Source of the DNA: Escherichia virus TH57
Strand: one strand, 5' to 3'
DNA: 64,000 nucleotides
Sequence record: MT446422.1
Part shown: one piece after another, positions 17,920 to 64,000 of the stretch
Layout of the letters: the number at the start of each line of letters is the position of its first letter
Numbering within the stretch: position 1 is the stretch's first letter
The notes under the pieces: model-generated
What the model was told of the DNA's origin: nothing
Databases searched by the model: none
What the model saw: only the letters and a program-made list of their open reading frames with translations
Program-made: the position numbers and the translations under genes

Positions 17920-18477
17920 ATGAACGAAATTAAATTAACCAAGAATAACTATGTAAATAATAAAGAGCTTTTGAAAGCTATTTCGGAGTGGAAACAGAAG
18001 CTGAATGCGAACACCGACCCGAACAAAATTATTCGCCAGAACGATGTTATTGGTCTGGCGATTATGCTTATAGCCGAAGGTCTTAGCAAACGTTTCAACT
18101 TCTCCGGATATACCCAATCCTGGAAGCAAGAAATGATAGCAGACGGAATTGAGGCCGCAATAAAAGGTCTTCATAACTTCGACGAAACAAAATACGATAA
18201 TCCACATGCTTACATAACAATGGCTTGCTTCAATGCTTTCGTTCAGCGTATCAAAAAAGAACGTAAAGAAATGGCAAAGAAATATAGCTACTTCGTCCAT
18301 AACGTATATGATTCACGTGACGACGATATGGTGGCTCTGGCTGATGAAACATTTATCCAGGACATCTACGACAAAATGACACAGTACGAATCCTCTTTAG
18401 TTAAAGCGCCAGGGTCTGATAAGAGCGCCAAAGATAAAGAAGGTGATTTGGATTTTTTATATGGAACATCAATTTGA
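17920..18477 (+). CDS. 55: late-transcription sigma factor gp55
   Basis: 185 aa; long stretches identical to recalled T4 gp55. Confidence 0.92.
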
Positions 18478-18694
18478 TATTACCGATTTTTTAGATAAAA
18501 TCGAGGAAGACTTTACTGCGCTCCCATATTTCATTAAACTTTATCTGCGAGACATAAAAGGTCTTCCAATTGATATCGACCCTTTAAACGTCCGGAATCT
18601 GGAATTTACTTCACCGGATAATAACGTTGATTACCGTTATCATGTGGATAATGCTAATCTATATTTTACAATTGAGTTAACTCCCAAGGATTAA
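18461..18694 (+). CDS. hypothetical protein (55.1 position)
   Basis: 77 aa from internal ATG; start uncertain. Confidence 0.4.
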
Positions 18695-18695
18695 T

Positions 18696-19007
18696 ATGCA
18701 AGCTCCAGATATTTCTCAACTGACCGATAAGCAGATTGAAGAAGCACAGGAACGTCTCGAAGAAGCGAACGCACTCGAAGCGCAGAGTCAAGCAGCAAAG
18801 ATTCTGAAAAAGAATGCTCGTGAAATTGCACGACTGAATAAGCATGCTCAAGGGGCAGTGCTGGAAAACAATTTTGAAGCATACAAATATGCTTTAGTTA
18901 AACTGCGTGGAATTTACCGCCAACCAGTTACGGAAGACCTGATTAAGTTGATGTGGGAAACTACTCGCAAACAAATTTGGGAAATCGTAAATGGCATTAG
19001 TAAATAA
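18696..19007 (+). CDS. hypothetical protein
   Basis: 103-aa helical ORF. Confidence 0.5.
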   Translation: MQAPDISQLTDKQIEEAQERLEEANALEAQSQAAKILKKNAREIARLNKHAQGAVLENNFEAYKYALVKLRGIYRQPVTEDLIKLMWETTRKQIWEIVNGISK

Positions 19008-19194
19008 ACCTTTTAAACGGCTTCTTGTTGGAGCCGCTTTCAGACTTCGCTCATACGGTAATATCTGTATCAAGCAGACCGAAACCGAATATAAAATGGT
19101 TGGTCAGTATTCTGATGGTATTTTTCAGATTGAGCCTGTGGCCAAGGTTTGGGTGGATTCACACCAACTTAAGAAATGGTGGCAACGATGGTAG
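18991..19194 (+). CDS. hypothetical protein
   Basis: 67-aa ORF. Confidence 0.4.
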   Translation: MALVNKPFKRLLVGAAFRLRSYGNICIKQTETEYKMVGQYSDGIFQIEPVAKVWVDSHQLKKWWQRW

Positions 19195-19284
19195 GATTTT
19201 ATGAAAGCGGATGTAACGAAGACGAACATCCGGATTTTTAAGCTTATGAACGACGAATAAGAAAAAGTTTAAGAGGTTTTATGA

Positions 19285-19458
19285 ATGACGAATTCGACGG
19301 ATTTTGATAAGATTAAATCTGGCAAAAATGAGATGATACTTCAATTTGAAGCCGCTCGTATTAAAGCAGAAAATGAAGGCACTATTACCCATAAGAAAAT
19401 CAAGTTCAAGTCTAATCGCGAACCTCTGTATGGTGTATTAATTGGAAAGGAAGCCTAG
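19285..19458 (+). CDS. hypothetical small protein
   Basis: 57 aa, AAGAGG SD, terminator overlaps its end; not in track. Confidence 0.35.
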   Translation: MTNSTDFDKIKSGKNEMILQFEAARIKAENEGTITHKKIKFKSNREPLYGVLIGKEA

Positions 19459-19470
19459 TGCTTCCTTTTT
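19446..19470 (+). terminator. rho-independent terminator
   Basis: AAAGGAAGC-CTAGT-GCTTCCTTT followed by TT. Confidence 0.65.
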
Positions 19471-19493
19471 GCTTTATATTCGGGATGATAAAA
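19466..19493 (+). promoter_or_regulatory. middle-type promoter upstream of 47
   Basis: TTTGCTTTAT MotA-box-like element, then GATAAAAT. Confidence 0.4.
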
Positions 19494-19514
19494 TGAACCA
19501 ACTGAGGAGAACAT

Positions 19515-19658
19515 ATGGAATTATTTTTAGGATATGTTGTGTTATTCATGGCATTCTACACATTCACACGAGCTTGTTGGATAGGATTCTTTTCTACTCC
19601 TGACGGGTTCATTTCAATAATTTTATTTTGCACTGCGATAACGGCGCTTGGCTTATGA
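19515..19658 (+). CDS. hypothetical small membrane protein
   Basis: 47 aa, GAGGAGAA SD, ATGA overlap with gene 47; not in track. Confidence 0.4.
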   Translation: MELFLGYVVLFMAFYTFTRACWIGFFSTPDGFISIILFCTAITALGL

Positions 19659-20674
19659 AAATTTTAAATTTAGGTGATTGGCACTTGGGTGTCAAAGCTG
19701 ACGACCCATGGGCTCAAAACATTCAACGTGATGGTATTTTACAGGCGATTGCATATTCCAAAGCGAATGGAATTAAAGTTTGGATTCAATATGGTGATAT
19801 TTTTGACGTCCGTAAGGCCGTAACGCATAAGACAATGGAATTCAGCCGCGAGATTATGGAACTCCTTCGTGAAGCAGGAATTACTATGCACACGATAGTC
19901 GGGAACCATGACATGAATCTGAAGAATAAGATTCATCCTAATGCTATCACCGAACTCCTGAATAAGTATGACCATGTTAAAATCTACGACAAGCCAACGA
20001 CTGTTGATTTTGACGGTTGTCAGATTGATATGATTCCATGGATGTGTGACGAGAACGCGACTGACATTCATCAACACATCAAAACTTCTGGTGCCGAATA
20101 TTGCATCGGTCACTGGGAATTAACCGGGTTTTATTTCTATAAAGGATTGAAATCCCACGGGCTTGAGCCTGATTTCCTTAAGAAGTACAAGCAAGTTTGG
20201 TCTGGGCACTTCCATACCATTTCAGAAGCTGCGAACGTTAAGTACATAGGAACGCCATGGACATTAACAGCAGGTGATGAGAATGACCCGCGCGGATTCT
20301 GGGAATTTGATACAGAAACCGAAGAGATGAAATTTATTCCGAATGAAACCACCTGGCATCGGAAGATTTTTTATCCAAACGAAACTATTAACTACGACGA
20401 CTTCAAAGACTTATCAGTCCGTGTTATTGTAGAAAAAGTCGATAAAGACCTGACCAAGTTCGAATCTGAATTAGAAAAGCGTGTACATGAATTGCGTGTT
20501 GTCAATAAGGTTGATAACAGTGTTGATACGACTGACTCCGAAGAAGAGTTAGACATAAAACGCTTAACTGATATGATGGCAGAATATATTGATGCATTAC
20601 CTGACACCAATGAGAAAGAATCAAAAGCTCTTAAAGCATTGGCCAACAAATTATATCTTGAGGTGCAACCGTGA
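19655..20674 (+). CDS. 47: recombination endonuclease subunit gp47 (Mre11/SbcD-like)
   Basis: 339 aa from MKILNLGDWHLG; phosphoesterase motifs GDxHLG, GDxFD, GNHD. Confidence 0.9.
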   Translation: MKILNLGDWHLGVKADDPWAQNIQRDGILQAIAYSKANGIKVWIQYGDIFDVRKAVTHKTMEFSREIMELLREAGITMHTIVGNHDMNLKNKIHPNAITELLNKYDHVKIYDKPTTVDFDGCQIDMIPWMCDENATDIHQHIKTSGAEYCIGHWELTGFYFYKGLKSHGLEPDFLKKYKQVWSGHFHTISEAANVKYIGTPWTLTAGDENDPRGFWEFDTETEEMKFIPNETTWHRKIFYPNETINYDDFKDLSVRVIVEKVDKDLTKFESELEKRVHELRVVNKVDNSVDTTDSEEELDIKRLTDMMAEYIDALPDTNEKESKALKALANKLYLEVQP

Positions 20675-26473: not shown

Positions 26474-29188
26474 ATGCAAGAATTTTATTTAACTATCGAA
26501 CAAATCGGTGACAATCTGCTTGAACGATACATTGACAAGAACGGTCATGAACGTGTTCGTGAAATCCCTTATGCTCCATGCTTGTTTATGCATGCCCGTG
26601 AAGACCAGGCTGCAAAGTATACAGACATCTATAATAAAGGTTGTGTGAAAAAAGAATTCGATTCCATGCGTGATGCATCCCAGTGGATGAAGCGAATGAA
26701 TGACATGGGTCTCGAAGCTATGGGTATGGATGACTTTAAACTCGCATACTTGTCCGACCGTTACCCGCACGAAATCAAATACGATTCAAGTAAAATCCGT
26801 GTGGCTAACTTCGATATCGAGGTGACATCTCCTGATGGGTTCCCTGAGCCGTCTGAAGCACGTCACCCTATTGATGCCCTGACGCACTATGATTCGGTAG
26901 ACGATAAATTCTATGTCTTTGACCTTTTGAGCTCACCATACGCCACTGTGGAGCAATGGTCTATCGATATTGCTGCTAAGCTGCAAGAAGATGGCGGCGA
27001 TGAAGTCCCCGAAGAAATCCTGGAAAAAATTGTTTATATGGCCTTCGATTCAGAAGAAGAAATGCTCCAGCAGTATTTGGTATTCTGGAACGAGAAAACT
27101 CCGGTTATGTTGACTGGTTGGAACATCGAGAAGTTTGATATTCCATATATCTACAACCGCCTTAAAAATGTGTTTGGTGAAGCTACGGCAAAACGTCTGA
27201 GTCCACATCGTCGTACAAAAGTTAAGGTCATTAACAACGGATTCGGTGAAGAACAAGAAATCATTCAGATTCTGGGTATCTCTGTTCTGGATTATCTGGA
27301 CCTGTATAAAAAGTTCAGCTTCACAAACCAACCATCTTATTCGTTGGATTATGTTGCAGAATCTGAGCTGGGTGTTGGTAAACTCCCGTATGATGGTCCG
27401 ATTTCTAAACTGCGTGAATCAAATCACCAACGGTATATTTCTTATAACATCATCGACGTTTATCGTGTTGTGCAGATTGACCGTAAGCGACAGTTTATTA
27501 ACCTAAGCCAGTCAATGGGTTATTATGCAAAAATGCAGATTCAGTCTGTATTCAGCCCAATCAAAACTTGGGATGCGATTATCTTTAACAGCCTGAAGAC
27601 GCAAAACAAAGTCATTCCGGAAACCAAATCGCATGTTCGCCAATCGTTCCCTGGTGCATTTGTTAAGGAACCGATTCCGAACGCATACAAATACGTTATG
27701 AGCTGTGACTTAACATCTCTGTATCCGAGCATCATCCGACAGATTAACATCAGTCCAGAAACGATTGCCGGGTCATTTGCACCTGCGCCGATGTACGAAT
27801 ACATTGCAGGAACTGCTGACCGTCCATCTGATACATTTAGTTGTGCTCCAAACGGTATGATGTATTTTAAAGATGTTGCGGGTATTATTCCGACAGAAGT
27901 CACCAAGGTGTTTAATCAGCGTAAAGAACACAAAGGCTATATGCTTGCGGCTCAACGTAATGGTGAACTGATTAAGGAAGCTCTGCGTAATCCAGGAACT
28001 GGTACAACCGAGCCTGAAGTTGATTATCGTTATGACTTTGATGACAATATGAAAACAACCTTGCATGGTCTGAATCAAACAGTCCTGAATGGTATGTTGT
28101 ACAAAGCGCAGATGGAAGAAGTTGCTGGTATGACCGCACAGATTAACCGTAAACTGCTTATCAACAGTTGTTATGGTGCTCTGGGTAATATCTGGTTCCG
28201 TTACTTTGACCTGCGAAATGCAACCGCGATTACATCTTTCGGGCAACTTGCATTGCAGTGGATTGAGCGTAAAGTTAACGAATATTTTGATAGTGTTTGT
28301 GGTACAAGTGGTGAAACATATGTATTCTATGGCGATACTGACTCCATTTATATCCAGTGCGATAACCTGATTAAAAAGGTTGGTGGCGAATCTAAATTCC
28401 GCGATACAAACCACCTGGTTGACTTCATGGACAAGTTTGCGAAAGACCGTCTGGAACCAGCAATCGATAAAGCTTTCCGTGAACTAGCTGAATACATGAA
28501 CAACAAACAGCACCTTATGTTTATGGACCGTGAAGCGATTGCATGTCCTCCACTTGGTTCTAAAGGTGTTGGTGGATTCTGGACGGCGAAGAAGCGTTAT
28601 GCTCTGAACGTGTACGATATGGAAGGCACACGATATGCTGTTCCGAAACTGAAAATCATGGGTCTGGAAACTCAAAAGTCGAGCACACCAAAAGCATGTC
28701 AGAAAGCTCTGAAAGAATGTATCCGCCGTATGTTGCAAGAAGGTGAAGAATCTCTGCAGACGTACTTCAAGGAATTCAACAAGGAATTTAATGAGCTTAA
28801 TTACATGACCATCGCAGGTGTATCATCGGTTAACAACATCCAGAAATATAATGAGGGTGGTTTCCCTGGATTTAAGTGTCCGGCTCATATCAAAGGCGTG
28901 CTTGCTTACATGCGTGCAACCAAAGGGCTGAAGACTGTTCCACAAATCATGGAAGGGGAAAAGGTGTATGTGCTTCCTCTTAAAGTTGGTAACCCGTTTG
29001 GCGAAACCGTGATTGCGTGGCCATCAGGGATTGAACTCCCGATTGAAATTCGTGACCAAGTCTTGCAGTGGATGGACTACAACACACTGTTCCAGAAGAC
29101 TTTTGTTAAGCCATTGACAGGGTTCTCTGAAGCAGCTAAGGTTGATTACGAGAAAAAAGCATCTCTTTTTGATATGTTTGACTTTTAA
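26474..29188 (+). CDS. 43: DNA polymerase gp43 (family B)
   Basis: 904 aa, uninterrupted; exonuclease and polymerase motifs (FDIE, YGDTDS). Confidence 0.95.
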   Translation: MQEFYLTIEQIGDNLLERYIDKNGHERVREIPYAPCLFMHAREDQAAKYTDIYNKGCVKKEFDSMRDASQWMKRMNDMGLEAMGMDDFKLAYLSDRYPHEIKYDSSKIRVANFDIEVTSPDGFPEPSEARHPIDALTHYDSVDDKFYVFDLLSSPYATVEQWSIDIAAKLQEDGGDEVPEEILEKIVYMAFDSEEEMLQQYLVFWNEKTPVMLTGWNIEKFDIPYIYNRLKNVFGEATAKRLSPHRRTKVKVINNGFGEEQEIIQILGISVLDYLDLYKKFSFTNQPSYSLDYVAESELGVGKLPYDGPISKLRESNHQRYISYNIIDVYRVVQIDRKRQFINLSQSMGYYAKMQIQSVFSPIKTWDAIIFNSLKTQNKVIPETKSHVRQSFPGAFVKEPIPNAYKYVMSCDLTSLYPSIIRQINISPETIAGSFAPAPMYEYIAGTADRPSDTFSCAPNGMMYFKDVAGIIPTEVTKVFNQRKEHKGYMLAAQRNGELIKEALRNPGTGTTEPEVDYRYDFDDNMKTTLHGLNQTVLNGMLYKAQMEEVAGMTAQINRKLLINSCYGALGNIWFRYFDLRNATAITSFGQLALQWIERKVNEYFDSVCGTSGETYVFYGDTDSIYIQCDNLIKKVGGESKFRDTNHLVDFMDKFAKDRLEPAIDKAFRELAEYMNNKQHLMFMDREAIACPPLGSKGVGGFWTAKKRYALNVYDMEGTRYAVPKLKIMGLETQKSSTPKACQKALKECIRRMLQEGEESLQTYFKEFNKEFNELNYMTIAGVSSVNNIQKYNEGGFPGFKCPAHIKGVLAYMRATKGLKTVPQIMEGEKVYVLPLKVGNPFGETVIAWPSGIELPIEIRDQVLQWMDYNTLFQKTFVKPLTGFSEAAKVDYEKKASLFDMFDF

Positions 29189-29190
29189 GT

Positions 29191-29257
29191 GTTTACAACG
29201 GCAAAGGACTGCCGTATGATTACTCCATCAACTGATGAATAACTTAAGGATATTAAA
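29191..29257 (+). promoter_or_regulatory. early promoter, CATCAAC leader type, upstream of imm
   Basis: GTTTAC, 18 bp, TATGAT, TACTCCATCAACTGATG leader. Confidence 0.5.
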
Positions 29258-29500
29258 ATGGAAACATTAATTGCGGGTACTGTTGTTCTGGGTGCTGGCT
29301 CTTTCTTCCTGGCTGCACTGGCATATTTTCTGCCGTGGATTATCGCACTACTGCGAGGAACCAAAAGTAATTGCGGAATCTTCTTTGTTAACCTCCTGTT
29401 AGGTTGGACAATGGTCGGATGGTTTATTGCATTTATCTGGGCACTCGTTGCTGAGCGTAAATCAAACGCACAAGTAATTATCATCAAGGAAACCAAATGA
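29258..29500 (+). CDS. imm: superinfection immunity protein Imm
   Basis: 80-aa two-TM protein with YFLPWIIA motif; downstream of 43 as in T4. Confidence 0.8.
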   Translation: METLIAGTVVLGAGSFFLAALAYFLPWIIALLRGTKSNCGIFFVNLLLGWTMVGWFIAFIWALVAERKSNAQVIIIKETK

Positions 29501-29640
29501 AGATAATTACAATTATTATACTGATTGCATTTTTTAGTATGTCAATCTATTGGGCAATAATGACTCCGCATATGATTCCAACTTTAATTTTGGGTTGGGT
29601 ATTTTTGGGGCTCCAAGCTCGCTATGAATGTTTTAATTGA
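29497..29640 (+). CDS. hypothetical small membrane protein (imm.1 position)
   Basis: 47 aa, ATGA overlap with imm; not in track. Confidence 0.4.
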   Translation: MKIITIIILIAFFSMSIYWAIMTPHMIPTLILGWVFLGLQARYECFN

Positions 29641-29650
29641 GGAAAATACA

Positions 29651-30154
29651 ATGAAAAAGTTAGCTATCGCAGCTGTTATGCTGCTATCTGGTTGTGCTTA
29701 CCAGGGCGATGTAGTTAATGTCAGTGAAATTGGTAAAGCGCGAATTGCTGCAGACCGTCAGGTGCATAATGGTTCCTTTGATTTCAAAGGTGGTACTGGA
29801 CTTATCTACAAACGCGACAACAATCAATGTGGAAACAACTGCGCAAAATATGCTCAACAAGAAATTGAGTACAAACGCGAGCAAGCTGCAAAGCATGACG
29901 AAATCATTGCCAAGCTGGAAGCAGAAACTAAGCGACAAAATGACTTGGATACTGTTAACCAGATTTCACAGGTCTGCATGTCATACATCAATATGCAGAT
30001 AAACATCATGCGCGCGGAAGCTTATCAGGCAGCGGAGACGGGTTCTCCAAAAGCCAATGAGTATCGCGATATGTATCAGCGGTCTGCTCAAAATCGTCTG
30101 AGCTATATTAATAAATGTGTGGCTAAAGAGAAAGCCCGCCAAGGTATTAACTAA
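29651..30154 (+). CDS. hypothetical lipoprotein
   Basis: 167 aa from ATG with GAGGAAAA SD; signal peptide plus lipobox LSGC; sits where T4 has 42 and beta-gt. Confidence 0.55.
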   Translation: MKKLAIAAVMLLSGCAYQGDVVNVSEIGKARIAADRQVHNGSFDFKGGTGLIYKRDNNQCGNNCAKYAQQEIEYKREQAAKHDEIIAKLEAETKRQNDLDTVNQISQVCMSYINMQINIMRAEAYQAAETGSPKANEYRDMYQRSAQNRLSYINKCVAKEKARQGIN

Positions 30155-30177
30155 CATTAATTGCTCTAAAAATACAG

Positions 30178-30186
30178 TGATATAAT
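30178..30186 (+). promoter_or_regulatory. extended -10 promoter element upstream of uvsX
   Basis: TGATATAAT. Confidence 0.35.
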
Positions 30187-30239
30187 TATCCTATCTTAAA
30201 CCTGTGAGAAAAATATAATGGTGCCTATGGAAAAAATGA

Positions 30240-31418
30240 ATGTCTATTGCAGATTTGAAATCCCGTTTGATTAAAGCTTCTACATCCAAAATGACTGCGA
30301 CTCTTACTAAGTCCAAGTTTTTTAATGATAAAGATGTAGTTCGTACAAAAATCCCGATGCTGAACATTGCAATCAGCGGTGCACTAGATGGTGGTATGCA
30401 GTCAGGTTTGACTATTTTTGCTGGTCCGTCAAAACACTTTAAATCCAATATGGGTTTAACGATGGTCTCTGCATATATGAACAAATACCCCGAAGCAATC
30501 TGTTTGTTCTATGATTCAGAATTTGGTATCACAGAAGCCTATCTGCGTGCAATGAAAGTAGACCCGGAGCGTGTTATCCACACACCAATCCAGTCGGTTG
30601 AACAATTGAAAGTTGATATGGTTAACCAGCTTGAAGCAATTGAGCGTGGTGAAAAAGTCATTATCTTTATTGACTCAATCGGTAACATGGCGTCAAAAAA
30701 AGAAACAGAAGATGCGATGAACGAAAAAGTCGTTGGCGATATGACTCGTGCTAAATCCCTGAAATCTCTGTTCCGTATTGTTACCCCATATTTTAGTATC
30801 AAGGATATTCCTTGTGTCGCGGTTAACCATACAATCGAGACGATTGAGATGTATAGCAAAACCGTTATGACCGGTGGTACAGGTGTTATGTATTCTGCGG
30901 ACACCGTATTCATTATCGGCAAACGCCAGATTAAAGAAACTGGTAAAGAACTTGAAGGTTTCCAATTTGTTCTGAATGCCGAAAAATCTCGTATGGTCAA
31001 AGAGAAAAGTAAATTCTTCATTGATGTAAAATTCGATGGTGGTATTGACCCGTATTCTGGCCTGCTTGATATGGCAATGGAAATCGGATTTGTAGTGAAA
31101 CCGAAAGTTGGTTGGTATAACCGTGAATATCTTGATGTTGAGACCGGTGAAATGGTCCGCGAAGAAAAATCATGGCGTGCAAAAGATACTAACTGTACTG
31201 AATTCTGGGGCCCGTTGTTTAAGCACGAACCTTTCCGTGACGCAATCAAACGCCATTACCAACTGGGTGCAATCGATAGCAATGCTGTTGTTGATGCCGA
31301 AGTTGATGCGCTTATTGCCTCCAAGGTTGAAAAATACTCTGCCCCTGAAGGTAAGGCAAAACCATCTGCGGCAGATATCGAAAACGATTTAGATATGATG
31401 GAAGACCTTGATGAATGA
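30240..31418 (+). CDS. uvsX: recombinase UvsX (RecA-like)
   Basis: 392 aa; Walker A GPSKHFKS; high identity to recalled T4 UvsX. Confidence 0.95.
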   Translation: MSIADLKSRLIKASTSKMTATLTKSKFFNDKDVVRTKIPMLNIAISGALDGGMQSGLTIFAGPSKHFKSNMGLTMVSAYMNKYPEAICLFYDSEFGITEAYLRAMKVDPERVIHTPIQSVEQLKVDMVNQLEAIERGEKVIIFIDSIGNMASKKETEDAMNEKVVGDMTRAKSLKSLFRIVTPYFSIKDIPCVAVNHTIETIEMYSKTVMTGGTGVMYSADTVFIIGKRQIKETGKELEGFQFVLNAEKSRMVKEKSKFFIDVKFDGGIDPYSGLLDMAMEIGFVVKPKVGWYNREYLDVETGEMVREEKSWRAKDTNCTEFWGPLFKHEPFRDAIKRHYQLGAIDSNAVVDAEVDALIASKVEKYSAPEGKAKPSAADIENDLDMMEDLDE

Positions 31419-37212: not shown

Positions 37213-37296
37213 ATATCCTCCTTTCTTGTATTTATGCTTCAAACCAATATGATATAATTAACATACAAACAACATGAATTGATAAGGAAAAATATA

Positions 37297-37815
37297 ATGG
37301 CTCATTTTAATGAATGTTCACAACTGATTGCTGGTGTTGACAAAGCTGAAGAAGCTTATGACAATGCAATTATCGAAGGCACTGACCCGCTGCAGATTAT
37401 GCTTGATATGCAGAAATCATTGCAGGTCCGTTTGGCTACTGAAAAACCAGAATACAACTCACATCCAGACGAATTGGCTACCGCCGGCGATGTTGTTGCA
37501 TGGCTTCGTAACCAGAAAGATTATGTTGATGATGAATTCCGTGAACTTCTAACTTCTCTCGGTGGTATGTCTAATGGCGAGAAAGCTGCATCTAGTGTAT
37601 GGAAGCCTTGGAAAGCCCAACATGCTGAATTCCGTAATCGTCGTATTGATGAGTTGTCTCCTGAAGACCAGCTCGAAATTAAATTTGAGATGATTGACAT
37701 CCTGCACTTTGTTCTGAACATGTTCCATGGTCTTGGCCTGTCGGCAGAAGAAATCTTTAAATTGTATTACCTGAAAAATGCTGAAAACTTTGCTCGTCAA
37801 GACCGAGGTTATTAA
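37297..37815 (+). CDS. 56: dCTPase-dUTPase gp56
   Basis: 172 aa from MAHFNEC; strong match to recalled T4 gp56. Confidence 0.9.
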   Translation: MAHFNECSQLIAGVDKAEEAYDNAIIEGTDPLQIMLDMQKSLQVRLATEKPEYNSHPDELATAGDVVAWLRNQKDYVDDEFRELLTSLGGMSNGEKAASSVWKPWKAQHAEFRNRRIDELSPEDQLEIKFEMIDILHFVLNMFHGLGLSAEEIFKLYYLKNAENFARQDRGY

Positions 37816-53775: not shown

Positions 53776-54045
53776 ATGATTAAGCATTTCAATGTGTCAG
53801 ACCGTGACATCAAAGTTTCAAATCTCCGGGGTCACCATTACGCAGGAATAGTTTACTGTGGCAAGCTCATCAAGCATGAAGGTGATGTTCACTATGGCTG
53901 GTTGGAATGTGATGAAGTAGTTGTTGGGGAATTCCCTGACCCGGATTCTGATACATTTGATGCTAATGACCGTTTGTATTATGGCGAGCTTCATATCCGG
54001 GGAATCGTCGGTATCGATGAGGTAAAAGATGATTCAGAAGAGTAA
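53776..54045 (+). CDS. hypothetical protein
   Basis: 89-aa ORF. Confidence 0.5.
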   Translation: MIKHFNVSDRDIKVSNLRGHHYAGIVYCGKLIKHEGDVHYGWLECDEVVVGEFPDPDSDTFDANDRLYYGELHIRGIVGIDEVKDDSEE

Positions 54046-54622
54046 AACATGGGAGCATCTGAAAAAGATGCCCTCCTTTCTTTATACAAAGGAAGACTTA
54101 ACACCTGAATCCCTACAAAAGATTGTAGACACGGCCAGGTATTCATTGCGTAAAGACCCAGGTCAAGACCGTGAGCAAGTCATGCAAAGATGTATGGTGG
54201 CTACAATGGCAGAACAAGCTATTGCTAAATGGACCTCCGGCTTTTTATGCGGCGGTGATGAAGATTACGATAATCCTTATTCCTTTGCATTTGATGTAGT
54301 TTCGAAGGAAGGGGTAAGAATCGAAGTCAAGACCCACCAGTCTGGTTCCAAATGGATATCCGTGCATACTGGTAGTCAGGGCGATTATCCACATGGTTAC
54401 GGGATTAATCTTGGTCCTTTTATGCAACACAAGCTTGCTGACCTTATGATTATGTTTAATGTAAAAGAGACTATCAAAGGTTATAGATTTAAACCAAAAT
54501 TCCTTGCTGGGCCTGGGGCTTTTGTTCCTGAGTCCGGTCTTGTGCAGAAGTCACAAGGGGATGGCTGGTACCTCCGTTCTTGTTCAGAAGAAAAATTCCC
54601 CTATCACCGGTTTACAAGCTGA
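54029..54622 (+). CDS. hypothetical protein (possibly denB-like by position)
   Basis: 197-aa ORF between rIIB and ndd; no motif recognised. Confidence 0.45.
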   Translation: MIQKSKTWEHLKKMPSFLYTKEDLTPESLQKIVDTARYSLRKDPGQDREQVMQRCMVATMAEQAIAKWTSGFLCGGDEDYDNPYSFAFDVVSKEGVRIEVKTHQSGSKWISVHTGSQGDYPHGYGINLGPFMQHKLADLMIMFNVKETIKGYRFKPKFLAGPGAFVPESGLVQKSQGDGWYLRSCSEEKFPYHRFTS

Positions 54623-57439: not shown

Positions 57440-58819
57440 ATGTCTGACGTTTTAAGTATGATGTCCAAACAGTTCAGTGATTCCATGGGGTCCCTTAACC
57501 CACGCAGTCTAAAAGACATTATTGATGTGGAAGCATTGTCATATGCTATCTACACTGTGGAAGGTCGTGCCATCCCAAACATGATTGATGGTTTTAAACC
57601 AGTTCACAGATTTGTTATGGCGAGAGCATTAGACCTGGCTCGTGGCGATAAGAATAAATTCCATAAGGTTGCCTCCATTGCAGGTGGCGTAGCTGATTAT
57701 GGTTATCACCATGGCGAAGCATCAGCGGAAGAAGCAACTTCTGGTCTGGTCGCAACATATAAAAATGAATACCCCATGTTTGATGGGCAAGGCAACTTTG
57801 GTTCCAGAATGGTGCCAGAAGCATCATCAGCTCGTTATGTATTCGCAAGGGTTTCAAAGAACTTTTATAACTTGTTTAAGGATACAGAATATGCTCCGGT
57901 CCATCCTGATGAAGAACATAAGCCTCCTGCTTTTTATCTTCCTGTTATTCCTACTGTATTACTTAACGCCACTTCTGGGATTGCTGTTGGCTTCGCTACT
58001 GATATTCTTCCTCATTCGTTCCAGGACGTCAAGGAAGCTGTTAAAGCTATCGTGGAAGGTCGTGAGCCGGTTGCTCCGAAAGTAAAATATCCAGAATTCC
58101 GTGGTGAAGTTGTTGAGCTGGAAGAGCCTGGTAAGTATGAGCTTCATGGCACGTACAAAATGACTTCCAGGACTCAAATGGAAATTACTGAAATCCCGGT
58201 CCAATGGAACCTGGAAAAGTATACAAGTAAAATCCTGGACCCACTGGAAGAGAAAGGTTTTATCACCTGGAAAGATAACTGTGGCGAGCATGGTTTTGGG
58301 TTTAAGATTAAATTCCGTAAGGAATACAAGCTGGATGGCACTGAAGAAGAAAATCATGAGAAAATCATGAAAGACTTTGGTCTGATTGAGAAGCTCTCCC
58401 AGAACTTAACTGTACTTAATCACAAAGGCAAATTGGCTGAATACACCAACACGCTTGACCTGATTCGCGATTTCGTTGATGTCCGTAAGACTTATGTCCA
58501 AGTGCGAATTGACAGTAAGATTAAAGAAACTGAAGCCGCGTTTAAACTGGCCCGAGCAAAAGTCTTCTTTATTAAAGAAGTGATTGATGGTAAGGTTGTT
58601 ATCCAGGGGAAACCTCGTAAGAAGTTGATTGAGGAGCTCCAGGCGAGTGAAATATATGGCGATTATGCAGAGAAGTTAGTGGCGATGAACATCTACCATA
58701 TGACCTCTGATGAAGCCAAGAAGCTTGCAGACGAAGCAAAGGCTAAGAAAGCCGAGCATGAGTACTGGAAGACAACTGATGTTAAAACTGAATACCTTAA
58801 TGATTTGGAGGCTCTATGA
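57440..58819 (+). CDS. 52: DNA topoisomerase II medium subunit gp52 (GyrA-like)
   Basis: 459 aa; matches recalled T4 gp52. Confidence 0.9.
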   Translation: MSDVLSMMSKQFSDSMGSLNPRSLKDIIDVEALSYAIYTVEGRAIPNMIDGFKPVHRFVMARALDLARGDKNKFHKVASIAGGVADYGYHHGEASAEEATSGLVATYKNEYPMFDGQGNFGSRMVPEASSARYVFARVSKNFYNLFKDTEYAPVHPDEEHKPPAFYLPVIPTVLLNATSGIAVGFATDILPHSFQDVKEAVKAIVEGREPVAPKVKYPEFRGEVVELEEPGKYELHGTYKMTSRTQMEITEIPVQWNLEKYTSKILDPLEEKGFITWKDNCGEHGFGFKIKFRKEYKLDGTEEENHEKIMKDFGLIEKLSQNLTVLNHKGKLAEYTNTLDLIRDFVDVRKTYVQVRIDSKIKETEAAFKLARAKVFFIKEVIDGKVVIQGKPRKKLIEELQASEIYGDYAEKLVAMNIYHMTSDEAKKLADEAKAKKAEHEYWKTTDVKTEYLNDLEAL

Positions 58820-58914
58820 GTTTTGGAGTTGAGTTTGCATTGCTTTGTATTTTCGCGGCAATCGCGGGTGTGATTGTTGGTATGTTTATTGGTAATAAGA
58901 TAGATAAAGACTAG
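58816..58914 (+). CDS. hypothetical small membrane peptide
   Basis: 32 aa, ATGA overlap with gene 52 stop; not in track. Confidence 0.3.
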   Translation: MSFGVEFALLCIFAAIAGVIVGMFIGNKIDKD

Positions 58915-58936
58915 GGCCCTTCGGGGTCCTTTTTTA
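58913..58936 (+). terminator. rho-independent terminator
   Basis: GGGCCC-TTCG-GGGTCC (one mismatch) followed by TTTTTT. Confidence 0.65.
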
Positions 58937-58948
58937 TTTTAAAAAGTA

Positions 58949-59027
58949 GTGTACAAGTCCCTTGACCCGATGCATAATGATTCCATACTGAGTTACACAC
59001 TGAATCATAAAAATTTTGGAGAATAAA
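58949..59027 (+). promoter_or_regulatory. early promoter cassette, CCATACTGAGTTAC leader type
   Basis: AAAAAGTAGTGTAC, CATAAT, GATTCCATACTGAGTTACAC...GGAGAATAAA ATG. Confidence 0.55.
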
Positions 59028-59243
59028 ATGTTTACTGCACAACAGAATGAAGGTCAAGAATACATCAACGCCAAATTCAAATCTAACAAAGAAGCTTGTT
59101 ATTACTACTTTGACATGTTCAAACTGGCAAACTCTAAAGAAGAACGTAAACAAGCGATTGATGTTATTGTTTCTACTTCCCATATGAAACGTACTGTGGT
59201 ACAATCATATGCATCAAATTATATGAAATCTATTAAGGGATAA
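59028..59243 (+). CDS. hypothetical protein
   Basis: 71 aa from ATG after leader (track ORF begins at upstream TTG). Confidence 0.5.
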   Translation: MFTAQQNEGQEYINAKFKSNKEACYYYFDMFKLANSKEERKQAIDVIVSTSHMKRTVVQSYASNYMKSIKG

Positions 59244-59245
59244 TT

Positions 59246-59854
59246 GTGAACAAGTTAAATTATATCGTTAAATGCTCCCAGAACGCCTTACATGAGACTG
59301 ATGTCAATGCCCTGGTGTTTGTATACAAAAACAACTTTGTGCGTCCAGAGGTTGTTTTAAACCAGCAGAACACATCAATTGATAGTGTGCAGACATTGTT
59401 GAATAACAACTATGTTGAAGCTTCTGGTGATGGTTTGATGGTTACAGAAAAAGGTGTTGACCTTATTCTGGATGCAGCTGAACTTTGGGCAAATGAAAAT
59501 AATCCTGACCTTCTGGAAGTGAAGAAGACAAGAACAAAACGCGGTGTGACTGATGAAATGGAAGCGACTGCAGAATATATCAAAGAGCAATTGTTGTCTA
59601 TTGGTATTGACTTTAAGAGCATTTCAGAAGACCGCAGCAATCTGATTGTGAAGTTCAAGCGTGTCAAGACATTAAAACAGATTGATGTACGTCGTGATGG
59701 TCAGATTCGCGTGCATGCGTATAATACTGAACAAAAGATAGTAAAACAGTTTACAGACGTGGGATTTAGCGTTAAAGTGGGTGGATTAAATACCTACATT
59801 GACAACGTTATGTCAACTGAAAACATTCAACATGTTATTAACATCTTAAAGTGA
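59246..59854 (+). CDS. motA: middle-transcription activator MotA
   Basis: 202 aa from GTG; SGDGL and NIQHVI regions align with recalled T4 MotA; adjacent to gene 52. Confidence 0.8.
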   Translation: MNKLNYIVKCSQNALHETDVNALVFVYKNNFVRPEVVLNQQNTSIDSVQTLLNNNYVEASGDGLMVTEKGVDLILDAAELWANENNPDLLEVKKTRTKRGVTDEMEATAEYIKEQLLSIGIDFKSISEDRSNLIVKFKRVKTLKQIDVRRDGQIRVHAYNTEQKIVKQFTDVGFSVKVGGLNTYIDNVMSTENIQHVINILK

Positions 59855-59864
59855 GGAAATTGTT

Positions 59865-60041
59865 ATGAACATCTATCTGATTAAGTACCTAAAAGATGGT
59901 AAAGAACGTGATTACCAAATCCCCGCAAAAAATGAATATGATGCGTGTGTTCGCCTTGGTCAGATTCATGGTGATGACCGTGAATATCGCAATGATGTTG
60001 AAATTGAAATCCAATCTGTAACTTTGAAAGTGAGAGGCTAA
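59865..60041 (+). CDS. hypothetical small protein (motA.1 position)
   Basis: 58 aa with GAGGAAA SD; not in track. Confidence 0.4.
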   Translation: MNIYLIKYLKDGKERDYQIPAKNEYDACVRLGQIHGDDREYRNDVEIEIQSVTLKVRG

Positions 60042-60043
60042 TC

Positions 60044-60376
60044 ATGAATAAGCTGAATATTGTTAATGAATTGCGTGCTTGCGTAGAACCTACTCAAGAG
60101 GGTTGGGATGTTTGGTATCATGGCGCTTACCTTGGGACTATTGTCAAGGTCAAAGCTGGTCAGTATCTTATTCACCGCCAGGATGATGCAACAGCACCGT
60201 TTGGCGTCCGCAAGAACTTCATGGCAGCGATTGGCGCCTTTGTTCCAGCAGCATATGAAGTCTATAAAGCTGACTATAAGGAATACCAGGAATCACAACC
60301 AGTTATTCGCTCAATTGGTGTCAATAAAGCTCAACAGAAAAGTCTGTGGCAACGTGTTAAAGGTTGGTTCAAATGA
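60044..60376 (+). CDS. hypothetical protein
   Basis: 110-aa ORF. Confidence 0.5.
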   Translation: MNKLNIVNELRACVEPTQEGWDVWYHGAYLGTIVKVKAGQYLIHRQDDATAPFGVRKNFMAAIGAFVPAAYEVYKADYKEYQESQPVIRSIGVNKAQQKSLWQRVKGWFK

Positions 60377-60711
60377 TTCCTATGGAGCTAAATTGGGATG
60401 GCGAAGGTCATTCCCTTAAATTGATTGAAGAGCAACGTAACGCTTGGGATGAGCGTTGTGCCCTGGTGAATGGTATTAAGGTAATTTATAACCTTCATCT
60501 CCAAATTGATAATATTCCTCTTGAGTTTGGTATGCAGTTATCACGTTTTCTTGAGATTATTACTATAGAAAAAGTATCCATAACTTCATTTGGTGTATGT
60601 CAAACAGTTGATATCAAATTGGCTTCTTCTGATAAAGGCGAGTTGATTGGTATTGGTGATAAAATTCATGAATTCGTGAAATATAATGGTTATAAGGTGA
60701 TTATCAAATGA
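60364..60711 (+). CDS. hypothetical protein
   Basis: 115-aa ORF. Confidence 0.5.
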
Positions 60712-61196
60712 ATCCATTAAAAGGTAAAGAATTATCTTTTAAAGACCGTATGGCTTTATTGGATAAAGCTCTTTCTCGTGAGACACCTGAAAGTCTAGCG
60801 GCTAAATTACAGGCATCCGGTGACTATACAGAATATACAGAAGAAGATGTTTTAGAAGAAGTCCCAGAAATCTGTTGGCAGATTGCTCATTGGAACAACA
60901 ATGAAAAATATCAGCGACGAATTGTATGCGCTGCCAACCGCTTTAGATTAAAAGATGGCGGGACTTTGGTTATTCCTGGCGCCAGACATTATTCAAAAGA
61001 TATGGCAGAAGTGCTTGACCAGGTAAGTGATAAACTTGTATCAGACCATGTTTGTGGTGATAATCAAGGATTCATTGACCAATACAGCAATTACTGGACC
61101 CGTGAAGAAGCAATGATTATTGCGACTTATGCAAATCAAGTGCGTATTGAACGTGGTGGTAGTGAAAAAGAACTTTACTCTGAGGACCTTTACTAA
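60708..61196 (+). CDS. hypothetical protein
   Basis: 162-aa ORF, ATGA overlap. Confidence 0.5.
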
Positions 61197-61477
61197 TGAA
61201 TCTTAAACAACTCCAGATTGATGCAATCGAAGCCCATATTAACCATATTAAACGTCTGAATGTTATGCTGGAAGACAACTGGGGAACTTATGTCAACCAA
61301 CCGGCCTGGGATGCATTAGACCATGAATATATAAAGAATATTAGTTCCAAGACAATTCATGGAAATATGGAAGGCCTAAAGCCATTCTTGCGTGATATGT
61401 ATATTGCTACTAATAAAGAAATTATTGGCTCTTTGGAATATCAATTAAGGAAATTGCATGAACAATCTGGTAGCTAA
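61196..61477 (+). CDS. hypothetical protein
   Basis: 93-aa ORF. Confidence 0.5.
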   Translation: MNLKQLQIDAIEAHINHIKRLNVMLEDNWGTYVNQPAWDALDHEYIKNISSKTIHGNMEGLKPFLRDMYIATNKEIIGSLEYQLRKLHEQSGS

Positions 61478-61577
61478 ACACGATTTCAATAAGGCATCTG
61501 TCCATAAGGACAAGAAGAAAAATTTTAAAGAGTCCAATCGCAAACAGAAACATAAGGGTAAAGGCTATGATTACTAA
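61458..61577 (+). CDS. hypothetical small basic protein
   Basis: 39 aa, K-rich; overlaps neighbours; not in track. Confidence 0.25.
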   Translation: MNNLVAKHDFNKASVHKDKKKNFKESNRKQKHKGKGYDY

Positions 61578-61857
61578 ACTCCATACATATCAAGCAACTG
61601 AATTGGTTATTCTTATTGATGAGCTTTTTAAAATCCATGCTTCAGTTCCAGCCGAAATCTATGCAGAAATTCTTTGTGATTTGGATAGCAGCTTTGGCTA
61701 TATTCAACCGGAATATACAATTAGATTCTCTAGTGAACGACCTGGCTACGCTAAAGTGGTTTTTGGTCCTGGATTAGATGAAGAACAAGTATTAAGAGAA
61801 ATTCAAGAAGAAATTGATGATTTTGGTTTAGAAGATTACATCGAGGAATCACTATGA
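61567..61857 (+). CDS. hypothetical acidic protein (possible Arn-like by position)
   Basis: 96 aa, strongly acidic, two ORFs upstream of asiA where T4 encodes Arn. Confidence 0.4.
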   Translation: MITKLHTYQATELVILIDELFKIHASVPAEIYAEILCDLDSSFGYIQPEYTIRFSSERPGYAKVVFGPGLDEEQVLREIQEEIDDFGLEDYIEESL

Positions 61858-62018
61858 GTCATAACTTAGAGAACACCATCACTGGCCAACGTACACACGA
61901 ATCGACTTGCTTTGATGAATTCCTGGGAGCCGATTTTAAGTTCCAGGAACCAGTTGAACAGATGTATCAGGAATATGTTGTACAGATGGAAAATCATGTG
62001 TACAACCCAGAGGAATAA
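61854..62018 (+). CDS. hypothetical small protein (asiA.1 position)
   Basis: 54 aa, ATGA overlap; not in track. Confidence 0.35.
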   Translation: MSHNLENTITGQRTHESTCFDEFLGADFKFQEPVEQMYQEYVVQMENHVYNPEE

Positions 62019-62076
62019 TAGTACAATATCCTTACTGAATAATTGAATGTCTTATTGAATACTTGAGTAAATTAAA

Positions 62077-62352
62077 ATGACTAAATTTGAAATTGTTTCT
62101 GAAATTGTTACTATAACTTCAATTTTGATTAAAACCGACCGGGAAGATATTACGATGAAGCGTGATGTGTTTATCGCGTTTTTGAATGAGTTGGGATTAA
62201 GGAATGAGAATGGTAATGAGTTAAACAATGTATCGTTTAACAAGTTGTTTAAAAGTTTATCTGAAGATGAAATTGAACAAATCATTGAACAATTTAACGA
62301 AGGATTCGAAGATATACACCGATATCTGATGATGTATACCTCCGGATTCTAA
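62077..62352 (+). CDS. asiA: anti-sigma70 factor AsiA
   Basis: 91 aa; ITSILIK..REDI...FIAFLNE...EQFNEGFE..HRYL matches recalled T4 AsiA. Confidence 0.9.
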   Translation: MTKFEIVSEIVTITSILIKTDREDITMKRDVFIAFLNELGLRNENGNELNNVSFNKLFKSLSEDEIEQIIEQFNEGFEDIHRYLMMYTSGF

Positions 62353-63002
62353 CGTGTACGCCCGAGCGTACGACCTGCTTGCCCACACATAGCAGAAAGC
62401 CTATCAAAACTAAGGTCGGGTTTTTGCTTATACCAGTACAGCGAGACTGTACCTGCATAAACGTTTTCCAAATTAAAGAATGGGCAGCTGAACATATATT
62501 CGAAGCTGCTTTTTTTCTTTGTTGGTAAGAATACAGATTCCGTGCCGGATTCAAAATAATTACCATTAACCCCCGCCAAATATTCCGCTGAAGTTTTATC
62601 TATTGGAAACCCACCCAAGTTTTTTTCGTCGACTGTATCAGGTAATATCCCCTCATAACCCACCATATCCACGAAGTAGTTAAGGTTAGTTGGTCTAAAA
62701 GAATATATTGCTGTAAAGTCTGCCCCACTTGATGAGTGAACTATCTGGATTTGCTCGATAGCTGCAATTTTAAATCTGTTATCCTGGTCTTGCCTTATCA
62801 TTTCTGTGTACGAGGCATATGAAGCATCCCTATACGCATCTAAAATTGCATCACCTTTATACCAGATTACCGCCATTAAAAATAATAGAACAATAACTAG
62901 TACCCGGGAAAAAACAACTTTCCCGGTTGCATTATCTTTAAAAATTCTATCAAGAAGTCCAAAAAGTAGGTCGGGTATTGAGATTCCTACTTTTGGTTCC
63001 AT
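62349..63002 (-). CDS. t: holin T
   Basis: 217 aa; N-terminal LLFGLLDRIFKDNATGKV and TM segment match recalled T4 holin; stop overlaps asiA stop. Confidence 0.9.
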   Translation of the reverse strand: MEPKVGISIPDLLFGLLDRIFKDNATGKVVFSRVLVIVLLFLMAVIWYKGDAILDAYRDASYASYTEMIRQDQDNRFKIAAIEQIQIVHSSSGADFTAIYSFRPTNLNYFVDMVGYEGILPDTVDEKNLGGFPIDKTSAEYLAGVNGNYFESGTESVFLPTKKKSSFEYMFSCPFFNLENVYAGTVSLYWYKQKPDLSFDRLSAMCGQAGRTLGRTR

Positions 63003-63616: not shown

Positions 63617-64000
63617 TTATGCTAAACGAACGATATAGTTAAAAGCAATGTTTTTAACCGTGTTTTCTGTATTACCTGTACTATTTACAGTGATAGTATG
63701 ACCGTGCGAACCAATTGCTACCGAGTGGGTATGAGCACCAATACCTACAGTATGTGTATGGGCACCAATACCTACAGTATGCGCGTGGTTACCTGTGGTA
63801 CTTGTGGTTCCTGACCAAGAGTGGGTATGAGCACCATCATTTGATGTTTTACCAATAGAGCTACTAATACCGATAACACTGGTTGAATTAAATCCAGTCA
63901 TACCAGACGAGGCAGATACTGAATTAACACCGTCTGGAAATAACCCGTTTGGATTATTTCCACTCGAATATCTAGGACCTGAACGAGCGTGCTGGTGAGC
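63617..64000 (-). CDS. 37: long tail fibre distal subunit gp37, C-terminal part (partial)
   Basis: frame stays open to the window edge; ends NIAFNYIVRLA like T4 gp37; His-box repeats GAHTH. Confidence 0.85.
   Translation of the reverse strand, partial: AHQHARSGPRYSSGNNPNGLFPDGVNSVSASSGMTGFNSTSVIGISSSIGKTSNDGAHTHSWSGTTSTTGNHAHTVGIGAHTHTVGIGAHTHSVAIGSHGHTITVNSTGNTENTVKNIAFNYIVRLA
63735..63788 (-). repeat. 27-bp tandem repeat (2 units) encoding the gp37 His-box motif
   Basis: GCACCAATACCTACAGTATG core repeated; encodes two copies of TVGIGAHTH. Confidence 0.8.

Follow-up and report, generated by a model that had tools for sequence, protein, structure and literature searches.

Does a T4-like phage without the genes for 5-hydroxymethylcytosine (hmC) synthesis encode a counterpart of T4 Arn and, if so, against what would this counterpart act? 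In T4, Arn inhibits McrBC, a nuclease which cuts DNA containing hmC or 5-methylcytosine (5mC) (bioRxiv 10.64898/2026.06.19.733364; T4 annotation). The question is raised by a 64,000-nucleotide stretch of DNA from Escherichia virus TH57 (sequence record MT446422.1), the whole of which was analysed and is hereafter denoted the window; the interval between its motA and asiA genes holds eight small open reading frames (ORFs), here named O1 to O8 (59865–62018, + strand). An earlier note on this DNA stated that T4 encodes Arn in this interval, as is confirmed by the T4 gene order (motA, arn.4, arn.3, arn.2, arn.1, arn, asiA.1, asiA), and proposed the acidic 96-residue ORF at 61567–61857 (O7) as the Arn equivalent on the basis of position. 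Independent lines of evidence, from sequence, profiles, synteny and fold, agree with that assignment and support O7 as a positional orthologue and remote homologue of T4 Arn, on a diverged branch that includes RB69ORF259c of the Mosigviruses.

Relationship of O7 to T4 Arn

O7 (61567–61857, + strand; 96 residues, pI 4.1) is a divergent Arn-family protein located in the arn slot, and is assigned to phrog_8202 with an E-value of 7.5e-41. Its sequence similarity to T4 Arn, which the earlier note had left unverified, is detected at a remote level by BLASTP, phmmer and profile–profile comparison. The two proteins are about 24–26% identical, with BLASTP aligning the C-terminal 36 residues at 36% identity, whilst a phmmer search of O7 against all PDB chains returned a sole match at E ≤ 10, namely 3WX4 (T4 Arn; E 0.03), colinear over residues 13–93 of O7 and 11–92 of Arn. 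The family phrog_3151, annotated as 'inhibitor of McrBC restriction', matches O7 residues 14–91 with E 9.1e-6. For profile comparison we used an alignment of O7 with RB69ORF259c-type proteins (A1) and an alignment of Tequatrovirus Arn proteins (A2; 89% mean column identity), which hhalign superimposed colinearly (10–90 against 8–91) with E 4e-4. A hidden Markov model (HMM) built solely from Tequatrovirus Arn ranked O7 top (E 0.02) among the 3,926 six-frame ORFs of the window and of Escherichia virus TH54, a close relative. A second Arn paralogue was found in neither sequence, each having one Arn-family ORF.

A word-indexed homologue search with O7 returned four close relatives only, and an exhaustive search of 1.84 billion protein cluster representatives with the A1 HMM (E ≤ 0.001) recovered three clusters only, T4 Arn not being reached at that threshold. 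The connection between O7 and Arn was therefore made through an intermediate protein, P0023, together with the PHROG, hhalign and fold comparisons. P0023 is a 91-residue metagenomic protein which is found by the A1 profile at E 3.7e-11. Its full length aligns with T4 Arn at 33% identity (pairwise E 7e-11), and its identity to O7 is 29% (E 1e-8). Searched against a phage collection, it matches genes of the RB69ORF259c type with E about 1e-7 as well as Tequatrovirus genes that are annotated as McrBC inhibitors (3e-4). Addition of P0023 to the Arn HMM brings O7 to E 1.2e-5, about 4,000-fold ahead of the next of the 3,926 ORFs. Its contig carries the C-terminus of an O6-like peptide (overlapping by 11 nt), P0023 itself, an AsiA.1-like protein beginning MSHNLE, AsiA and the holin t, such that P0023 occupies the slot of O7. 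The same synteny is evident in the window, where the order arn.2/(O6)/O7/asiA.1-like/asiA/t parallels T4 arn.2/arn.1/arn/asiA.1/asiA/t. Scans of O7 against NCBIfam and PADLOC gave no match.

An AlphaFold2 model of O7, built from A1 with neither Arn sequences nor templates, has a pLDDT of 87.6 and a pTM of 0.76. Foldseek comparison of this model with the PDB gave 3WX4 as the sole match at E ≤ 0.001 (E 2.5e-4, TM 0.72/0.71 over 94 columns), the runner-up having E 0.087 and TM 0.35; the predicted structure of O7 thus matches the Arn fold, an alpha/beta domain of about 92 residues in 3WX4. Within BFVD, the model superposes on that of the RB69ORF259c homologue from phi25-307 with TM 0.85, and also finds uncharacterised proteins of 86–92 residues from the Klebsiella phages KP179 and AmPh_EK29 and the E. 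coli phage EcS1 (E 1e-3 to 8e-2, TM 0.6–0.8). These predicted structures hint that the Arn fold may be spread more widely in the Straboviridae.

The acidity ascribed to the ORF by the earlier note is evident from its composition, with 21 aspartate and glutamate residues against 6 lysine and arginine residues, a pI of 4.11 and a net charge of −15. O7 is more acidic than T4 Arn (16 acidic and 7 basic residues, pI 4.55, net −9); RB69ORF259c has 22 acidic and 10 basic residues. Strong negative charge, which is a prerequisite for DNA mimicry, is accordingly present in O7. The acidic residues gather on helix 2, where helix 3 begins, and along the C-terminal helices, and the same helices carry them family-wide.

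All eight small ORFs counted by the earlier note were found on the + strand at the coordinates given below. Each matches a conserved phage family in a PHROG scan (E 5e-23 to 1e-72) and has a ribosome-binding site of the GAGG/AAGG type 6–10 nt to its 5′ side. The genes are tightly packed, with gaps of 10 nt between motA and O1 and 2 nt between O1 and O2, ATGA overlaps at the O2/O3, O3/O4 and O7/O8 junctions, a TAATG arrangement at O4/O5, and longer overlaps of 20 nt at O5/O6 and 11 nt at O6/O7. Since they have family matches, ribosome-binding sites and abutting or overlapping junctions, the eight ORFs are real genes and not chance ORFs. Comparison of O7 in the window with its VR25 orthologue gave a dN/dS of 0.08, from which it follows that the gene is under purifying selection. 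The reality of the O7 gene is demonstrated by this analysis, as are its synteny, homology, predicted fold and acidity.

Possible function and target of O7

T4 Arn reportedly forms a dimer with surface charges that mimic the phosphate backbone of B-DNA. Other small, highly acidic, early-expressed phage anti-restriction proteins put forward as DNA-mimic decoys for DNA-binding defence proteins include T7 Ocr and ArdA, which O7 resembles in these respects. In the part of PMC7827196 that cites Ho et al. 2014, T4 Arn is described as a structural mimic of DNA which also binds H-NS, at that protein's DNA-binding domain. By analogy with T4 Arn, O7 would be a small acidic decoy that mimics DNA; it is probably produced from a translationally coupled operon extending from motA through asiA.1. 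The decoy would fill the site at which a defence protein of the host binds DNA, keeping that protein off the phage DNA, with the target most probably belonging to the class of modification-dependent (type IV) restriction nucleases such as McrBC. We infer DNA mimicry, dimerisation and the nature of the target from the properties of T4 Arn; for the last of these the candidates are McrBC, a different modification-dependent nuclease, and H-NS. Taken jointly, the proposal that O7 is an Arn orthologue or remote homologue acting as a DNA-mimic decoy, most probably on a type IV nuclease, is in our view probable, though not strongly so.

The state of the phage DNA bears on the choice of target. The earlier note had reasoned that, if this phage lacks glucosylation, an McrBC inhibitor would be especially important. 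The premise stands, in that no glucosyltransferase was found in the window or the TH54 genome, but the importance of the inhibitor does not follow, as dCMP hydroxymethylase is absent too. In tblastn searches the window yielded no homologue of gp42, a-gt, b-gt, dam or the RB69 5-hydroxycytosine (5hoC)/arabinose cluster, though the syntenic sites lie within it: in T4, b-gt and gene 42 are located between uvsX and imm, and a-gt is located between genes 47 and 55, whilst the corresponding parts of the window hold gp43, imm, a 47-residue ORF, a 176-residue ORF and uvsX (26474–31418), and gp55 to gp47 (17920–20674). When the T4 proteins gp42, a-gt, b-gt and dam, together with RB69p045–055, were used as tblastn queries against the whole TH54 genome, only a canonical thymidylate synthase was found, which is its sole ThyA homologue. 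Twenty unassigned ORFs of the window, scanned against PHROG and Pfam, produced no candidate for a cytosine-modification enzyme. Since no genes for hmC synthesis or glucosylation are present in the window or TH54, the phage DNA is not established as an McrBC substrate, and no literature linking Gaprivervirus with McrBC was found. The genes for the gp56 dCTPase (37279–37815) and DenB (54029–54622) are present in the window, consistent with two independent reports that Gapriverviruses have no hmC synthase but keep dCTPase, denA, denB and alc, their base being unidentified (PMC8056088, PMC12115623).

The distribution of O7 also informs on its probable target. Close homologues (at least 80% identity) occur in 12 phage records, against 85 Gaprivervirus and Dhakavirus records for O8. 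In SP18 and UPEC01, O6 is joined straight to O8, such that O7 is a clean presence/absence cassette. The end points of the cassette are two similar junctions, each containing a ribosome-binding site and a start (...GGNAA..CTATGA.T.A.TAA...), at 61553–61580 and 61840–61870 of the window; the corresponding junctions in these two relatives are at L001 2900–2935 and L002 2718–2753. With or without O7, the stop codon of O6 falls 11 nt into the following gene. Divergence of O7 is fast, with 33–36% identity to the RB69 and T4 proteins as against 38–76% for the neighbouring Arn.4, Arn.3 and Arn.2. Both this divergence and the presence/absence pattern are typical of counter-defence genes; because the distribution is accessory and the divergence between genera fast, a variable defence nuclease is favoured over a housekeeping target.

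Several observations weigh against the proposal of an Arn-type decoy acting on a type IV nuclease. The hhalign probability for A1 and A2 is just 34%, both profiles being shallow. Neither O7 nor RB69ORF259c matches the Pfam model DM_Arn (PF22134; gathering score 26 bits) even at E ≤ 10. P0023 scores 16 bits and T4 Arn 186.7 bits against this model, which may be narrow, having been recorded only on Tequatrovirus Arn homologues of near-identical sequence. The match in fold is not an entirely independent line of evidence, since the PDB entries used for AlphaFold2 training included 3WX4, and the only positions that are acidic in all four subgroups are D38, D90 and E93. O7 is missing from most related phages, being an accessory gene present in roughly 14% of them (about 12/85). 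Finally, hmC-containing DNA, the known McrBC substrate, may be absent from the phage that carries O7.

The last point would be accommodated if an Arn-fold mimic had been retargeted in a lineage from which the hmC pathway was lost, or in which it was never present, and which retains dCTPase, DenB and Alc-type functions. O7 would then block some other DNA-binding defence of the host, such as a type IV nuclease able to recognise the putative cytosine replacement of Gapriverviruses, and each of the three diverged Arn branches, in Tequatrovirus, Mosigvirus and Gaprivervirus/Dhakavirus, would be fitted to its own DNA chemistry. We regard this reading as tentative and rather unlikely. A target that is independent of cytosine modification is a further option, with O7 as an Arn-fold protein that mainly sequesters H-NS and relieves silencing of the AT-rich phage genome. 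H-NS is the second target reported for T4 Arn (Ho et al. 2014, in the portion of PMC7827196 which cites it), the window is AT-rich (GC 0.34–0.43 around the cluster), and the absence of the hmC pathway makes a modification-independent target sensible. However, the hosts universally have H-NS, yet only about 12 of the 85 related genomes carry O7, and its fast evolution between genera fits a variable defence target better; we therefore consider sequestration of H-NS as its main role to be unlikely.

It is more doubtful still that O7, whilst keeping the Arn fold, has drifted to a role which has nothing to do with DNA mimicry, such as host takeover in the manner of Arn.4/Emp and MreBCD. Its identity to T4 Arn is low, few acidic positions are strictly conserved and the known McrBC substrate may be absent, whilst the genes of the cluster are heterogeneous in function, as exemplified by Emp (bioRxiv 10.64898/2026.09.14.751387). 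Against such drift, a high net negative charge is kept, and even raised, in all four subgroups, and size, fold and genomic slot are conserved. The idea that the resemblance to Arn arose by chance, O7 being an unrelated small acidic protein in the same hypervariable slot, is close to refuted.

Comparison with the arn regions of T4, T2 and the Mosigviruses

The gene maps of the window and T4 show differences in both gene content and spacing. The arn.1 gene of the T2/T4 arn operon is missing from the window, and three additional genes (O1, O3 and O6) are interleaved. O7 is preceded by an overlapping gene for a 39-residue DUF7230 peptide which T4 does not have, its divergence from T4 Arn puts it below detection by the Pfam DM_Arn model, and its phage, unlike T4, has no genes for hmC synthesis or glucosylation. 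The spacing between motA and the first gene of the cluster is 10 nt in the window, with no separate promoter gap, and 133 nt in T4. In T2, the arn operon is a middle transcript which is stabilised by pairing of the host sRNA ArcZ at the 3′ end of arn.2, and an RNase E site has been placed in the arn.2–arn.1 intergenic region (bioRxiv 10.64898/2026.06.19.733364). The 3′ end of arn.2 in the window differs from that of T4, and the arn.2–arn.1 intergenic region is absent. In T4 this region of 70 nt (L004 2007–2076) aligns with coding sequence in the 5′ part of RB69 arn.1 (L005 2199–2260), which is the longer of the two genes, and T4 arn.1 may, from this alignment, be an N-terminally shortened form.

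The closest parallel to O7 is found in the Mosigviruses. RB69ORF259c and its Mosigvirus homologues belong to the same PHROG family as O7 (phrog_8202) and are 31–36% identical to it over the full length; RB69ORF259c occupies the same slot, within the same trio of O6-like, Arn-like and AsiA.1-like genes. In the phage collection, about 166 records contain an RB69ORF259c-type gene, and nearly all of these records are of the RB69 (Mosigvirus) type, whereas O7 is a minority cassette in the Gapriverviruses and Dhakaviruses. Mosigvirus DNA, as in RB69, contains arabinosylated 5-hydroxycytosine (PMC13326640), the RB69 gene cluster for which was found in neither the window nor TH54.

GenBank records label O7 and its homologues 'hypothetical protein'. 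A 2026 preprint lists Arn among the T4 early proteins without a homologue in the Mosigvirus AV110 (bioRxiv 10.64898/2026.09.14.751387); AV110 does carry an RB69ORF259c-type gene, despite that listing. An earlier survey stated, without detail, that groups I–III possess Arn (PMC8056088). The homology of O7 is an annotation upgrade which adds a diverged member to the known Arn family, and does not amount to a novel type of system. With it, the family of Arn DNA mimics reaches past the Tequatroviruses into two large groups of therapeutic-candidate coliphages, the first being the Mosigviruses and the second a subset of the Gapriverviruses and Dhakaviruses. In these groups a 'hypothetical' gene now becomes a candidate counter-defence gene. 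Natural phage pairs which differ in the cassette are available, with O7 present in VR20, VR25, TH54 and IME341 and absent from SP18 and UPEC01. The homology also sharpens the question of what the Gaprivervirus base is, and of what an Arn-type decoy protects in a phage without hmC.

Neighbouring genes and transcription of the cluster

The cluster is located in the final 7 kb of the window, which correspond to the gp52–motA–asiA–t–gp38–gp37 part of T4-like genomes. The phage is Gaprivervirus-like, its DNA from motA to asiA (59246–62352) being 97.7% identical to TH54 and 90–94% identical to VR20, UPEC01 and SP18, relatives which all belong to the genus Gaprivervirus; across the entire window, identity to TH54 is mostly 95–99%, falling to 87–92% in a few segments. 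The GC content of the cluster region (0.34–0.43) marks it as AT-rich.

The cluster is flanked by genes for two regulators. MotA, the activator of middle transcription, is encoded at 59246–59854 (+ strand) as a protein of 202 residues with a GTG start (phrog_1345, E 3.4e-71; PF09114 and PF09158), and is 42% identical to RB69 MotA and 33% identical to T4 MotA. The anti-sigma-70 factor AsiA is encoded at 62077–62352 (+ strand; 91 residues) and matches phrog_1166 (4.2e-37) and PF09010 (1.7e-20), with 52% identity to T4 AsiA.

O1 (59865–60041, + strand; 58 residues; phrog_20740, 2.4e-38) is an accessory ORF to which nothing in T4 or RB69 corresponds. It is present in UPEC01 and VR25 and absent from SP18 and from the closest relative, TH54, whose alignment with the window skips 59862–60039, and so represents a second presence/absence cassette. 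O3 is likewise an accessory ORF without a T4 or RB69 counterpart, being present in SP18 and UPEC01 and absent from VR25; it spans 60373–60711 (+ strand; 112 residues, or 115 if read from a TTG at 60364), matches phrog_14178 (3.1e-68) and gave no match in Pfam, NCBIfam or PADLOC scans. The ATG at 60373 is most likely the start, because the PHROG match begins at residue 4 of the TTG form and annotated homologues, such as that of SP18, begin there.

O2 (60044–60376, + strand; 110 residues; phrog_1594, 9.6e-53) is a basic protein (pI 9.4) which represents full-length Arn.4. It is 75% identical to RB69 Arn.4 and 74% identical to T4 Arn.4 over the shorter T4 form, which comprises the C-terminal 68 residues only, whilst the RB69 and AV110 versions are full-length like O2. 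In AV110, the gene adjoining motA encodes a protein of 109 residues that is 76% identical to O2 over 110 residues (E 1e-67); judging by its length and by the MotA-like gp95 beside it, this gene is probably that for Gp94, or 'Emp'. AV110 Emp is an elongasome-modulating peptide which was reported to bind MreB/C/D, to be toxic to E. coli and to perturb MreBCD-dependent wall synthesis (bioRxiv 10.64898/2026.09.14.751387). Close sequence homology suggests that O2 is an Emp homologue, for which a role at MreBCD is predicted only.

O4 (60708–61196, + strand; 162 residues; phrog_839, 1.2e-72) is homologous to Arn.3, with 71% identity to the T4 and 76% to the RB69 protein. Its residues 9–35 (60732–60812) match positions 2–28 of the 77 positions of the PADLOC model PDLC04070 PD-T4-9_B (E 1.7e-8). 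PD-T4-9 is the CmdTAC toxin–antitoxin–chaperone system, which defends against T4 (PMC9519451). As a phage early protein that shares a module with an anti-T4 system, O4 could, judging from this match, be a decoy or an antidote. O5 (61196–61477, + strand; 93 residues; phrog_1844, 1.7e-40) is the Arn.2 homologue, and is 62% identical to RB69 Arn.2 and 38% identical to T4 Arn.2.

O6 (61458–61577, + strand) encodes a very basic DUF7230 peptide of 39 residues (pI 10.1; PF23876, 5.9e-13; phrog_1359, 4.9e-23). An O6-like peptide precedes the Arn-like gene in AV110, RB69, VR25 and contig L013, and has no T4 counterpart. Assignment of O6 as Arn.1 was considered and ruled out, as VR25 has both Arn.1 and a copy of O6. 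The O6 homologue (MNNLVAKHDFNKASVHKDKKK...) is unannotated in the RefSeq entries of RB69 (L005 2392–2511) and VR25 (L003 about 2652–2771). The first ~25 residues of O6 additionally give matches to four further PHROG families, all of small proteins; extra copies of O6 were found in neither the window nor TH54. O8 (61854–62018, + strand; 54 residues; phrog_5245, 5e-33), an acidic protein, is the AsiA.1 homologue and equivalent to RB69ORF258c, to which it is 33% identical. It has the N-terminal MSHNLE motif in common with T4 AsiA.1, and is 43% identical to the T4 protein over 28 residues.

A hairpin resembling an intrinsic terminator is located upstream of the cluster at 58913–58940 (+ strand), after gp52 and a 32-residue ORF; its 7-bp stem contains 5 GC pairs and is followed by a T-run, TTTTTATTTT. 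This hairpin is likely to be the upstream boundary of a transcription unit that holds the eight ORFs together with motA and a 71/75-residue ORF. From 58941 to 62450 the scan gave no terminator-like site. The arrangement suggests that the eight genes are co-transcribed with motA and translationally coupled. Promoter-like sites are not enriched, with 15 in 58800–62450 versus 12.6 ± 3.7 in shuffled sequences. A pattern resembling the Mot box occurs 13 times across the window against 5.2 expected, with a single match in the cluster, inside O4 at 61012–61036 on the + strand (TGCTTGA, 12 nt, TAAACT); from its sequence and position, this site may serve as a middle promoter inside the cluster for the genes from arn.2 on.

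Further downstream, at 63617–63901 (− strand), the C-terminal part of the homologue of gp37, the long tail fibre protein, contains repeated HxH motifs, which we take to be an ordinary feature resembling the metal-binding needle of T4 gp37.

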